The notes below the pieces were generated by a model that had not been told where the DNA came from, made no database searches, and saw nothing but the letters and a program-made list of their open reading frames with translations. Made by a program: the position numbers and the translations under genes. Shown piece after piece: positions 26,943 through 55,165 of a DNA stretch of 59,055 bases. The number at the start of each line of letters is the position of its first letter. Position 1 is the first letter of the stretch. This DNA is from a virus (lineage: Duplodnaviria > Caudoviricetes): positions 1-59,055 of the IMG/VR virus record IMGVR_UViG_3300037961_006162; one strand, written 5' to 3'.

Positions 26943-27016
26943 AGCCAACTAACGGACTTGAACCGTTGACCTGAGCTTTACAAAAACCCTGCTCTATCCA
27001 GCTGAGCTAAGTTGGC
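26943..27016 (-). tRNA. tRNA-Thr(UGU)
   Basis: GCCAACT/AGTTGGC acceptor stem, anticodon loop TTTGTAA, GTTCAAGTC T-loop; no encoded CCA. Confidence 0.92.
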
Positions 27017-27325: not shown

Positions 27326-27410
27326 TGCGAGTGGGGGGACTTGAACCCCCACGACTTTAACAGTCAACAGATTTTAAGTCTGGTGCGTCTACCGATTCCG
27401 CCACACTCGC
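27326..27410 (-). tRNA. tRNA-Leu(UAA)
   Basis: GCGAGTG/CACTCGC acceptor stem, anticodon loop CTTAAAA, long variable arm, GTTCAAGTC; no intron, no CCA. Confidence 0.93.
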
Positions 27411-53594: not shown

Positions 53595-53630
53595 ATTATA
53601 GACAAAAAAAGAAGGGTAGTCAACCCTCCT
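53595..53630 (-). promoter_or_regulatory. sigma70 promoter overlapping an intrinsic terminator
   Basis: TTGACT-N17-TATAAT; the -35 sits in the loop of GAGGGT-TGACT-ACCCTT followed by C and T7. Confidence 0.7.
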
Positions 53631-53636
53631 TAAAGA

Positions 53637-53819
53637 CTATTTTAAAATCTCCCGACATACTCGTTTACATGTTGCTTGGTCGTTATCACACTCGATTAAG
53701 CAATTGTAATAATCATTAAGTAAATCAGATTCCTCCATACTTTTGTCTAATGTTTTTCCCAATCTCACTACACTTTGTTTCCATCCAGCTAATTGATTAT
53801 GCGATAATAGATTATGCAT
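53637..53819 (-). CDS. Small Cys-rich protein of picocyanobacterial type
   Basis: MHNLLSHNQLAGW...DYYNCLIECDNDQATCKRVC; GGAGG SD. Confidence 0.7.
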   Translation of the reverse strand: MHNLLSHNQLAGWKQSVVRLGKTLDKSMEESDLLNDYYNCLIECDNDQATCKRVCREILK

Positions 53820-53970
53820 AATGTCCTCCAATAGTTAGTTTTTCAACTCATAATACAAGTCGATTTTTTTTCAGACCACTTTACTATTCTCCAATTCTAT
53901 CACTATATATGAAAAATGTGCTGATTTACACAAAAATTATTAAACTTTTCTTTCTTTTTTACATAGGTAT

Positions 53971-53998
53971 AAAAAAAGAGAGGTTTCTCAACCTCTCT
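53971..53998 (-). terminator. Rho-independent terminator of the riboswitch unit
   Basis: AGAGAGGTT-GAGA-AACCTCTCT followed by a T run. Confidence 0.85.
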
Positions 53999-54002
53999 CG
54001 TA

Positions 54003-54095
54003 TTATTTGGTGAGAACTTTAATCTCTCCATATATCAATGAAAGGAATGCTACAGAACCAAGGGATACGATCCCAGCAATTTGTAGTGCTTCCAT
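54003..54095 (-). CDS. 30-aa single-pass membrane peptide
   Basis: Hand translation MEALQIAGIVSLGSVAFLSLIYGEIKVLTK; starts 1 nt after the upstream stop. Confidence 0.6.
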   Translation of the reverse strand: MEALQIAGIVSLGSVAFLSLIYGEIKVLTK

Positions 54096-54096
54096 A

Positions 54097-54261
54097 TCAC
54101 TTTACGTAAGTGCGACCACGATAGCAGTAGGTGCCGTGAGTTTCCTCAGGTGCCTCATGCACTTTGCAATCAACTCCACGATACTTAGTAACATGGATTT
54201 GTGCGTCGTGCAATGCTGCTGCCTTGTCGATTTGCTTTTTGATGAGTGTAAGGGTGTTCAT
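54097..54261 (-). CDS. DUF4278-like small protein (two YRG motifs)
   Basis: Hand translation MNTLTLIKKQIDKAAALHDAQIHVTKYRGVDCKVHEAPEETHGTYCYRGRTYVK; AGGAG SD at 54270-54274. Confidence 0.78.
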   Translation of the reverse strand: MNTLTLIKKQIDKAAALHDAQIHVTKYRGVDCKVHEAPEETHGTYCYRGRTYVK

Positions 54262-54298
54262 TTGTTTTACTCCTGAAATACTAGGGTGAATTAACTCC

Positions 54299-54480
54299 CG
54301 TTCCTTCAGTCGTTTGCGTCCCAGTTACATTCAGGTGTTGCTTCTTGAATTACTTCAATAAGCTCAACCTTGACTTGATTTTCCATATTCTGATTAGTAT
54401 CAATACGACTGATTATCTCAGCAGCATCAGTACAAACAATACCAGAATAAAGTAACAATTTAAATAACATGGGATGAACG
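54299..54480 (-). ncRNA. Glutamine riboswitch-like aptamer 2 (Downstream-peptide/glnA type) with ~137-nt P2 loop
   Basis: 5' CGTTCATCCC ... 3' GGGACGCAAACGACTGAAGGAACGGG; P1 CGTTC/GAACG; P2 TCCCA(T)GTTA/TAACTGGGA; upstream of a DUF4278-like ORF. Confidence 0.75.
54306..54470 (-). CDS. 54-aa ORF nested in aptamer 2
   Basis: Hand translation MLFKLLLYSGIVCTDAAEIISRIDTNQNMENQVKVELIEVIQEATPECNWDAND; GGAG 10 nt upstream. Confidence 0.7.
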   Translation of the reverse strand: MLFKLLLYSGIVCTDAAEIISRIDTNQNMENQVKVELIEVIQEATPECNWDAND

Positions 54481-54483
54481 CTC

Positions 54484-54718
54484 CGTTCCGCGACTTACTT
54501 GCGTCCTATGTTAGCACACTATCACACTTTCCATCAACCTTCGTTCTAAAATAACCTATAAGGTTATATTTTGTACGACGATCCAAGTTGTCGTCCATAA
54601 GGACTTCAACTCGTTTCTGGAGGAACCTTTCACACGACATATGCCATCCATAAGGAGTGCCGTCTGCATGATGGGCAAGATTCAGTGCCAACAGTAGTGC
54701 TAACATGTTGGATGAACG
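54484..54718 (-). ncRNA. Glutamine riboswitch-like aptamer 1 with ~179-nt P2 loop
   Basis: 5' CGTTCATCC ... 3' GGACGCAAGTAAGTCGCGGAACGG; perfect 10-bp long-range stem ATGTTAGCAC/GTGCTAACAT. Confidence 0.7.
54506..54706 (-). CDS. 66-aa ORF nested in aptamer 1 (signal-peptide-like N-terminus, 2 Cys)
   Basis: MLALLLALNLAHHADG...SCERF...GKCDSVLT; the upstream ATG at 54727 overlaps the -10 box, so the start is set at 54706. Confidence 0.7.
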   Translation of the reverse strand: MLALLLALNLAHHADGTPYGWHMSCERFLQKRVEVLMDDNLDRRTKYNLIGYFRTKVDGKCDSVLT

Positions 54719-54725
54719 TATGGCC

Positions 54726-54754
54726 ATTATAGACCGAACACATTATATAGTCAA
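54726..54754 (-). promoter_or_regulatory. sigma70 promoter whose predicted start site is at the 5' end of aptamer 1
   Basis: TTGACT-N17-TATAAT, 7 nt before CGTTCATCC. Confidence 0.82.
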
Positions 54755-54761
54755 GTAGTTT

Positions 54762-54777
54762 TGTAACTTATAATACA
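54762..54777. promoter_or_regulatory. Putative NtcA binding site
   Basis: TGTA-N8-TACA (tGTAacttataaTACa) just upstream of the -35 box. Confidence 0.6.
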
Positions 54778-54779
54778 GT

Positions 54780-55016
54780 TTACAAAAACATACCTTTCTC
54801 ACTCATGTACTGGAGAGTTTCTTTCATACTACCGATGTGCTTAAACCCAATATTAACTTGAGGATACTCAGCATCTTTACCAAACTCTGCCTCAAATCCT
54901 TTTTGGGTGAAGTGGTGATTCAATTTATACTCCAAAAAATCACCACCCAATGATTCCAAGAGTTCTGCCATACGCTGACACTCTTGACTACCGTTGCTAT
55001 AAATTACTGCTGCCAT
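54780..55016 (-). CDS. Glutaredoxin-like protein with degenerate active site
   Basis: VIYS...SQEC, YPQV.IG..HIG; single Cys. Confidence 0.65.
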   Translation of the reverse strand: MAAVIYSNGSQECQRMAELLESLGGDFLEYKLNHHFTQKGFEAEFGKDAEYPQVNIGFKHIGSMKETLQYMSEKGMFL

Positions 55017-55165
55017 TAGTCTTTATAGATAATTGAGATTTTTCTTTGTTCTTGACCTTTATGATCAACTAAAAGGGAATGATGAACTTCTGCATTCAAA
55101 AGTTCAGCAATCTTTTCCACTAAGTTATTTACTATGTTCAGCTCGGTTACCTTTTTGCCAGTCAT
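55016..55165 (-). CDS. Hypothetical protein
   Basis: Likely start MTGKKVTEL; TAATG overlap with the next gene. Confidence 0.5.
   Translation of the reverse strand: MTGKKVTELNIVNNLVEKIAELLNAEVHHSLLVDHKGQEQRKISIIYKD

Follow-up and report, generated by a model that had tools for sequence, protein, structure and literature searches.

The viral record IMGVR_UViG_3300037961_006162 (59,055 nucleotides (nt), analyzed at full length and called the window here) carries a group of small genes at 54777..53971, and we consider it on balance probable that this group is a mobile small-gene cassette of T4-like cyanophages, which copies the control logic of the host gifB/IF17-like genes and adds phage-specific parts to it by a mechanism that we infer from the layout. 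All cassette elements lie on the minus strand, and the coordinates are those of the whole stretch. The comparison of related loci supports a reading of the cassette as a candidate sensor of two nitrogen signals, 2-oxoglutarate at the level of DNA and glutamine at the level of RNA, since NtcA-type boxes accompany the cassette in two promoter layouts and also occur at its host counterparts, and since its RNA has retained, ahead of an IF17-like gene, a glutamine-aptamer core under constraint.

The stretch was matched at 60–80% identity by 421 phage records, nearly all of them Synechococcus/Prochlorococcus T4-like cyanophages. The annotated comparison set consisted of 16 cyanophage loci, in which the open reading frames (ORFs) are labelled ‘hypothetical’ or after syn9 gp196, gp197, and gp198, and a 34-base string across the junction of the two RNA units matched at least 120 further IMG/VR contigs. 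All loci were pooled and clustered on the upstream 110 nt at no more than 10% difference, which gave 109 non-redundant loci; these are related by descent, and counts over them are not counts of independent events. At least seven different genes precede the cassette among the 16 annotated loci, including nrdB with a small ORF, an HNH endonuclease, a JmjC protein, SAM decarboxylase, petE with a small ORF, and glutaredoxin, and the downstream neighbors vary as well (talC, an NAD(P)H-quinone oxidoreductase subunit, and a DNA methylase among them). Thus, the cassette behaves as a self-contained module.

An earlier note on this DNA, made from the letters of the window, had described a TGTA-N8-TACA box ahead of a strong promoter, and both were found in the positions given there:

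54777..54762, minus strand: TGTA-N8-TACA palindrome (NtcA-type box), ending 8 nt upstream of the -35 hexamer

54754..54749, minus strand: -35 hexamer TTGACT, matching 11 of 12 consensus letters together with the -10 hexamer

54731..54726, minus strand: -10 hexamer TATAAT, separated from the -35 hexamer by a 17-nt spacer

The GTA-N8-TAC core of the box is located at 54776..54763 and is flanked by T and A. Conservation at homologous loci, which the earlier note had proposed as a check, was clearly seen: an exact GTA-N8-TAC was present within 26 nt upstream of the -35 hexamer in 68 of the 94 promoter-bearing loci, compared with 4 of 885 equally sized control windows, and the remaining promoter-bearing loci had one mismatch (8 loci) or two or three mismatches (18 loci; 14 and 4, respectively). 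When positions were counted over the 109 non-redundant loci from CGTTCA, the string that opens the RNA units described below, the box started 51–62 nt before it in 68 loci and 19–24 nt before it in 8, and just two boxes were found elsewhere in the scanned 100 nt, the background being 383 boxes in 987,482 nt. Of the 16 annotated cyanophage loci, 15 likewise have GTA-N8-TAC ahead of their first CGTTCA, whereas syn9 has no box. The 68 exact boxes comprised 55 distinct 14-mers, with a freely varying spacer, and were preceded by T in 59 cases and followed by A in 55. Their usual position was 8 nt before the -35 hexamer (46 loci), and a second group was found 2–4 nt before it (16 loci). Retained GTA and TAC at fixed positions, with variable spacers between them, are what would be seen at a protein-binding site, and the comparison supports the predicted box as a positionally fixed, frequent yet non-universal part of the cassette in many cyanomyoviruses. 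The box of the window lies upstream of a complete promoter, and hence outside the RNA made from that promoter, which favors a role in DNA binding.

The sigma-70-type promoter ranked at the top of the five promoter-like sites that a consensus scan returned in 53600–55100, and its predicted start is approximately A54719, seven bases past the -10 hexamer and one base before CGTTCA (54718..54713). A promoter of this type was present in 94 of the 109 loci, ending 7–10 nt before CGTTCA (7 nt in the window); among these 94, the -35 hexamer was TTGACT in 63, the spacer was 17 nt in 82, and the -10 hexamer was TATAAT in 69. In the canonical geometry of NtcA activation, the box is centered near -41.5, about 22 nt before a -10 element of the form TAN3T. 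The window does not have this class II arrangement, in which the box replaces the -35 element: TTGACT is present, 31 nt separate the TAC of the box from TATAAT, and the box centre is at about -50.5 relative to a start at 54719, which agrees with the earlier note in placing it near -50 and off the canonical position. The geometry of NtcA repression, with the box near or over the -10 element or the start, is also not that of the window and was found in 8 of the 109 phage relatives.

Host loci show a comparable association. Glutamine-II aptamers of Rfam were detected in 21 of 31 picocyanobacterial-family genomes; these host aptamers are compact, scoring 33–74 bits in Rfam, and the ORF downstream encodes a protein of 33–82 amino acids with repeated YRG. 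GTA-N8-TAC, mostly in the form GTAGC-N4-GCTAC, was located 17–21 nt before CGTTCA in 27 of 29 host loci, just past a -10-like box. A distal GTA-N8-(A/T)AC 66–70 nt before CGTTCA was found in 16 of the 29 host loci (L262-L294), and this distal site has the geometry of an NtcA-activated promoter, besides the box at the transcription start. According to the accessible text of Klahn 2018 (PMC6212724), a perfect NtcA site covers the start of a Prochlorococcus IF17-like gene, from which repression is deduced there as for gifB; repressing NtcA boxes are placed near or over the -10 element or the start site, and activating boxes generally overlap the -35 element. Host IF17-type genes are described as NtcA-repressed in the accessible parts of the same paper and of PMC7760959. 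The host layout is copied by the 8 phage loci with the proximal box, and the window belongs to the majority type.

Several observations weigh against a nitrogen-sensing role of the box, or against any particular sign for it. TGTA-N8-TACA was observed twice in the window (1.71 expected; at least two in 58 of 100 shuffles) and GTA-N8-TAC 14 times (10.19 ± 3.33 expected); the predicted box by itself is non-significant in the window, and its support comes solely from conservation at related loci, 33 of 109 of which lack the exact box, so that it is dispensable. Its centre matches neither the canonical activating position nor an overlap with the core promoter, and because this geometry falls outside the canonical classes, the direction of control is a guess. 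A distal GTA-N8-AAC exactly 22 nt before TATAAA, which is an activating geometry, was present in 6 of the 8 host-like phage loci and in three further loci. In addition, four host-like phage loci have proximal palindromes that break the consensus (GTG...CAC in L076, L084, and L098, and an N9 form in L129); these fit an RNA hairpin as well as a protein site, and may be a 5' RNA hairpin there.

With the box missing from those 33 loci and its geometry outside the canonical NtcA classes, the palindrome could be unrelated to NtcA and 2-oxoglutarate, serving instead as the site of another dimeric protein of the host or the phage, or as a cassette boundary kept by recombination. The homology of the cassette often begins right at the box (BLAST matches start at query position 69–74 in H1, H2, H4, H15, and H33), which speaks for this alternative. 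We nevertheless regard this explanation as quite improbable, since the conserved letters are the exact NtcA consensus including the flanking T and A, since the spacer varies freely (55 of 68 distinct), and since the same consensus occurs at homologous host loci, where NtcA control has been proposed in print.

Provided that the box is an NtcA site, we lean towards repression, because the promoter would need no activator, because the homologous host genes are described as NtcA-repressed, and because repression would have the same sign as a glutamine-ON switch. The converse, in which NtcA activates and the cassette is made mainly in nitrogen-starved hosts while the riboswitch gates translation until glutamine recovers, seems to us unlikely. 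It draws on the distal sites of the phage loci (6 of 8 host-like and three further ones) and of the host loci (16 of 29), on the proposal in the accessible text of Sullivan 2010 (PMC3037559) that NtcA sites promote cyanophage genes, and on the box centre, which at -50.5 is about one helical turn from -41.5. On the other side, the promoter already matches 11 of 12 consensus letters, an overlap with the -35 element is usual for activating sites and host IF17-type genes are described as repressed (PMC6212724; PMC7760959 for the latter as well; accessible texts), and the box starts range from 14 to 23 nt before the -35 hexamer among relatives, which is a poor fit to an activator that depends on helical phase.

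Two side observations concern the box. ORF-bearing loops of RNA unit 1 co-occur with it (39 of 42 loci, compared with 37 of 67 compact loci), which may reflect shared ancestry. Six loci without a box (L028, L058, L061, L068, L128, and L133) have a different motif in common, CTGTAGGG, which is flanked by T-rich sequence and lies approximately where the box would be.

At the RNA level, the earlier note had proposed two aptamer/ORF units. Both are present as split halves with the core strings; the ORFs are nested in the aptamer loops and are not located downstream, and the units have no Rfam match. The elements are as follows:

54718..54697, minus strand: 5' half of unit 1, CGTTCA followed by the 5' strand of helix P1a (TCC and ATGTTAGCAC); it holds the ATG of ORF 1 at 54706..54704

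54706..54506, minus strand: nested ORF 1, 66 amino acids (phrog_6471, syn9 gp196-like)

54517..54483, minus strand: 3' half of unit 1, with the 3' strand of P1a (GTGCTAACAT, A, GGA) and the core GGACGCAAGTAAGTCGCGGAACGG

54480..54471, minus strand: 5' strand of unit 2, CGTTCATCCC, with the ATG of ORF 2 directly after it

54470..54306, minus strand: nested ORF 2, 54 amino acids (phrog_504, gp197-like)

54323..54298, minus strand: 3' half of unit 2, TGGGACGCAAACGACTGAAGGAACGG

The cores thus follow one another as CGTTCATCC-(ORF 1)-GGACGCAAGTAAGTCGCGGAACGG, a 3-nt linker, and CGTTCATCCC-(ORF 2)-GGGACGCAAACGACTGAAGGAACGG. A conserved phage ORF takes the place of the hairpin loop in both units; it starts within the 5' strand of P1a and ends, with its stop codon, within the 3' strand. 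The core strings CGUUCA, GGACGCAA, and GGAACG were found in this order, with CGUUC complementary to GAACG, and CGTTCAYC has only two sites in the window, both of them at the aptamer units. In P1a of unit 1, ATGTTAGCAC (54706..54697) is perfectly paired with GTGCTAACAT (54517..54508), and the start codon of ORF 1 is consequently paired to bases that abut its own stop codon. Both closing helices covary among relatives. Of 44 distinct strand pairs of unit 1 in its ORF-bearing form, 25 have C-G and 19 have U-A as the third P1a pair, and none is unpaired there; the mean helix run is 5.66 compared with 3.98 ± 0.19 for shuffled partners (maximum 4.52 in 200 shuffles). The fourth P1a pair of unit 2 is C-G in 71, U-A in 12, and U-G in 4 of 89, with a helix run of 5.40 compared with 5.15 ± 0.05. 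The minimum-free-energy fold of 54719..54250 includes both long-range helices (-138.2 kcal/mol, z -4.44). Among relatives, the loop of unit 1 is either short (16–51 nt from CGTTCA to the core) or 203–238 nt long with ORF 1, unit 2 usually contains ORF 2 and is short in five contigs, and short and ORF-bearing loops occur in all four possible combinations with unchanged cores. The comparison therefore supports the predicted split aptamers as having kept the glutamine-riboswitch core strings together with a covarying closing helix.

ORF 1 homologues comprised 52 distinct sequences in 56 loci; 39 of the 56 have their start 10 nt past the C of CGTTCA, and in 39 of the 56 the stop ended exactly at the core. 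ORF 2 homologues comprised 117 distinct sequences in 125 loci, with the start 10 nt after the C of CGTTCA in 122 and the stop one base before GGAACGG in 116, and a GGAG at 54484..54481 is a possible ribosome-binding site for ORF 2. Alignments of both families showed conserved residues amid variable ones, a hydrophobic N-terminus, and two conserved cysteines approximately 35 residues apart, which supports the predicted ORFs as genes. The final codons of ORF 2, W-D-A-N-D-stop, are at the same time the aptamer core, and over about 130 loci this core had variants that change amino acids and no synonymous ones, suggesting that selection there acts on the RNA. Both phrog_6471 and phrog_504 are listed as being of unknown function. 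The ORF 1 profile was found in 0 of 121 host-family genomes in a search run without a positive control, and the ORF 2 profile in one of the 121, on a phage-like contig, and in no others; as judged by these profiles, the nested families are phage-specific. An in-frame ATG at 54727 is present upstream of ORF 1, inside the -10 box.

The identification of the units as glutamine sensors is weakened by the Rfam results. The glutamine families had no match in the window at the Rfam gathering score, and no match in 53850–54850 even at E ≤ 10; Rfam would miss these aptamers because each is split by an ORF-sized loop. Single compact units of relatives scored 21.9–30.9 bits, which is also below the Rfam cut-offs of 35 (RF01739, type 1) and 33 (RF01704, type 2). 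These scores, together with the unusual size of loops of about 170–240 nt inside an aptamer, would suit relics that have lost glutamine sensing and are kept for the ORF ends or translation signals, with helices that merely couple or stabilize the small genes. We find this explanation very unlikely, because the core of ORF 2 has no synonymous change over those loci, the closing helices covary across the ORFs, all four loop combinations share their cores, and one relative, L102, passes the Rfam type-1 cut-off.

L102 is the one relative with both loops short and the only locus that passes (46.4 bits compared with 35, read across both units). The Rfam alignment at L102 (6358–6447) joined the 5' part of unit 1 to GAAGGAACG of unit 2, with the AGU/ACU of AGUCG and CGACU forming a second helix and the rest of unit 2 inside the loop of that helix. 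The same strings are complementary in the window (AGUCG at 54495..54491 in unit 1 and CGACU at 54312..54308 in unit 2). Thus, the two units may fold as a single interleaved aptamer. Both strands are nearly invariant across loci, with one CGAUU variant, so that folds within and across the units are indistinguishable by covariation. In its fullest form, which we hold only tentatively and think doubtful, this idea makes the leader of approximately 430 nt one interleaved type-1 glutamine sensor with a phage ORF in each of its two loops, in which the 5' two-thirds of unit 1 would pair with the 3' third of unit 2 (AGUCG with CGACU, and the CGUUC of the first unit with the GAACG of the second), translation of the nested ORFs and ligand sensing would be mutually exclusive, and 2-oxoglutarate would be a further input, read from the DNA through the NtcA box. 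No riboswitch of this architecture was found in the searchable literature. The outputs would then be opposite, the nested ORFs being produced at low glutamine or under ribosome loading and the IF17-like protein at high glutamine.

As a side observation, the unit junction at 54476–54488 (GAACG-GAG-CGUUC) could form a local hairpin of five pairs that competes with both long-range pairings. Two broader searches over genome contigs were set aside: the 24-nt 3' half of unit 2 was found in five contigs, presumed phage-like, and a loose aptamer pattern gave chance matches in unrelated bacteria among those listed and was discarded.

Downstream of the aptamer units, the earlier note had recognized a DUF4278-like ORF, a membrane peptide of 30 amino acids, and a strong terminator, all of which were present at the places given:

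54309..54304 with 54278..54273, minus strand: helix CTGAAG:TTTCAG, which abuts and overlaps the ribosome-binding site GGAG (54273..54270) of the IF17-like gene

54261..54097, minus strand: DUF4278-like (IF17-like) gene, 54 amino acids (phrog_545, gp198-like)

54095..54003, minus strand: ORF of a hydrophobic (membrane) peptide, 30 amino acids

53999..53971, minus strand: intrinsic terminator, with a 10-pair stem and a 4-nt loop (53999..53976) followed by a T run

DUF4278 was matched at E ≤ 0.01 by 48 of 50 gp198-like homologues scanned (best 1.7e-7), and hhalign of the gp198-like profile with the host aptamer-linked proteins gave a probability of 96.6%, E 6.2e-10, over 38 columns. Y27 R28 G29 and Y47 R48 G49 were invariant in 50 gp198-like sequences. 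The comparison supports the gp198-like protein as a homologue of the host IF17-like (DUF4278) proteins; in the accessible text of PMC6212724, DUF4278 is treated as equivalent to IF17, and IF17-like is the name given to the short marine forms. Two points count against the assignment and the function that it implies: the window protein itself matched Pfam PF14105 (DUF4278) below the cut-off (18.9 bits compared with 25.3; E 0.002), and short IF17-like proteins are without the C-terminal residues known to contact glutamine synthetase (PMC6212724, accessible text).

Ahead of the IF17-like gene, the variable pair of the CUGAAG:UUUCAG helix was A:U in 30, G:C in 55, and G:U in 27 of 119 distinct sequences, never A:C, and partnerless in 7, and the helix was also part of the computed minimum-free-energy fold. 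Either it forms the second stem of a type-2-like fold, or it is an inhibitory helix that glutamine opens; an inhibitory helix of the latter kind has been postulated for gifB, and glutamine binding is reported to enhance IF17 synthesis, in the accessible text of Klahn 2018 (PMC6212724).

Taken together, the proposed mechanism would operate as follows. In a nitrogen-starved host, 2-oxoglutarate-loaded NtcA would bind the box and dampen an otherwise strong promoter, and in a nitrogen-replete host the unit would be transcribed. High glutamine would then fold the sensor and lift the CUGAAG:UUUCAG helix off the ribosome-binding site of the IF17-like gene, and the IF17-like protein would act on the host glutamine synthetase. 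The nested ORFs would be translated while the sensor is unfolded, because their start codons lie inside the closing helix, which a translating ribosome must open; with an unfolded sensor as a requirement, the response of the nested ORFs would run counter to that of the downstream gene. The sign of NtcA control, the binding of glutamine, and glutamine synthetase as the target are the steps that we infer. The earlier note had suggested that the phage reads host nitrogen status twice to tune four microproteins. The double reading has comparative support in the box, the aptamer core, the IF17-like cargo, and the pairing of these in hosts, whereas the wording ‘tune four microproteins’ hides the likely opposite responses of the nested ORFs and the downstream gene.

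The promoter region contains two further conserved elements:

54744..54750, minus strand: CTATATA, the window version of a TA(A/T)ATA that is conserved right after the -35 hexamer in relatives

54735..54722, minus strand: palindrome of 14 nt around the -10 hexamer, GGTC-TATAAT-GGCC

The TA(A/T)ATA beside the -35 hexamer resembles the late promoter element of the T4 type, and a second promoter of the T4 late type may overlap the sigma-70-type one at 54744–54754. TTGACTA(A/T)ATA was also considered as a general early-promoter motif of this phage and was rejected, as it is not enriched in the window outside the cassette (TTGACTAWATA at no more than one mismatch: 3 sites compared with 5.52 expected). 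With regard to the palindrome, the best stem in the 23 nt before CGTTCA had a mean of 6.07 pairs in the 109 loci compared with 4.38 ± 0.98 in shuffled sequences, and its arms covary (45 distinct outer stems); at this distance from CGTTCA, another palindrome is present in hosts and in host-like phage loci. The palindrome around the -10 hexamer may form a conserved hairpin at the 5' end of any RNA initiated upstream of it. The covarying palindrome and the conserved TA(A/T)ATA point to a possible second start approximately 20 nt before CGTTCA (near 54738), which would place the palindrome at the 5' end of the RNA, as in hosts. For yfr6, the accessible text of Weinberg 2010 (PMC2864571) gives a transcription start approximately 20 nt 5' of the motif.

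RNA-library contigs from four runs map to 54000–54733, which indicates presence in RNA libraries only. One of these contigs is identical to the window over 54516–54717, and another extends to 54733. The contig ends at 54733 (X1), 54717 (X2), and 54000 (X1 and X3, two studies) give, at best, a faint indication of where transcripts end, and the finding that no RNA contig of the four runs lies on 53900–53967 or 54750–54900 is not evidence by itself. Metatranscriptome contigs that join across ORF 2 (54320–54473) were also observed, with only 4–10 letters between, for example a UUCG-type loop, suggesting that relatives with a compact unit 2 are present in RNA libraries. Terminator-like sites numbered 5 in the region compared with 0.6 ± 0.7 in shuffles.

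The peptide of 30 amino acids had tblastn matches in 57 of 135 related loci and, among the matches listed, starts 204–241 nt past unit 2, directly after the gp198-like gene. On the upstream side, the cassette is adjoined by one gene:

54780..55016: thioredoxin/glutaredoxin-like gene (phrog_22); the box begins three bases past its stop codon

On the other side, the cassette is followed on the minus strand by a Cys-rich ORF of 64 amino acids (phrog_665, 53637–53831) with its own terminator at 53609–53631. ORFs of this type had tblastn matches in 32 of 135 related loci and, among the matches listed, all but one were downstream of the cassette. The window also contains two tRNA genes on the minus strand, at 26943–27016 and 27326–27410 (Rfam 59.5 and 60.6 bits).

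If the proposed reading is true, viruses of a group that is very common in the ocean have their own copy of the host circuit that senses carbon/nitrogen balance, coupled to what is likely an inhibitor of glutamine synthetase. Host nitrogen assimilation could then be adjusted by the phage to the cell that it has entered, which bears on infection and on marine nitrogen flow. The ORF-in-aptamer layout would be a compact natural design in which one ligand controls two genes reciprocally, and it would explain why these elements go undetected in standard riboswitch scans. The cassette is small and is abundant in public data.

The components of this scheme have precedents. NtcA boxes in cyanomyoviruses (PMC3037559), glutamine riboswitches among cyanophage non-coding RNAs (PMC9964418, PMC9602691), and dual control of gifB by NtcA and a riboswitch (PMC6212724) are already known from the accessible texts of these papers. 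In the searchable literature, we found no report of a phage IF17-like/DUF4278 gene, the mention of DUF4278 that was found concerning a host gene, and no report of an ORF nested inside an aptamer helix, the nearest being the B12 and Mg switches coupled to upstream ORFs. The combination of an NtcA box, a glutamine sensor, and a phage IF17-like gene was likewise not reported in the searchable literature, supplements excluded, and phages are not mentioned in the accessible text of Klahn 2018 (PMC6212724) or of a 2018 review.

Among known systems, Synechocystis gifB, as described in the accessible text of PMC6212724, resembles the cassette in its NtcA-type promoter box, its glutamine aptamer in the leader, its DUF4278-family product, and the two signals 2-oxoglutarate and glutamine. 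Unlike gifB, the cassette is phage-borne and has the box upstream of a consensus -35 element instead of over the core promoter, two tandem units with ORFs in their loops, and a product of only 54 amino acids. The marine picocyanobacterial Downstream-peptide/Glutamine-II loci of the yfr6 type share the CGTTCA...GGAACG cores, a DUF4278-type product with YRG repeats, and a GTA-N8-TAC box; in the window, however, the aptamers are split and without Rfam match, whereas the host box sits at the transcription start. Intergenic GTA-N8-TAC sites in cyanomyoviruses were read by Sullivan 2010 (PMC3037559) as phage use of host nitrogen control; the accessible text of that paper names neither this cassette nor a riboswitch, whereas the box described here goes with a single defined cassette and with a second sensor. 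The tandem glnA RNAs in the accessible text of Weinberg 2010 (PMC2864571) also have two glutamine-aptamer-like units head to tail, but the units described here are separated by a 3-nt linker, may be interleaved (5' part of unit 1 with 3' part of unit 2, as in L102), and have ORFs in their loops. Finally, the B12 and Mg switches of Mycobacterium tuberculosis resemble the cassette in coupling ligand sensing by RNA to the translation of a very small ORF; by the accessible descriptions of those switches, the ORF lies downstream, in the expression platform, whereas here the ORF lies inside the closing helix of the aptamer.

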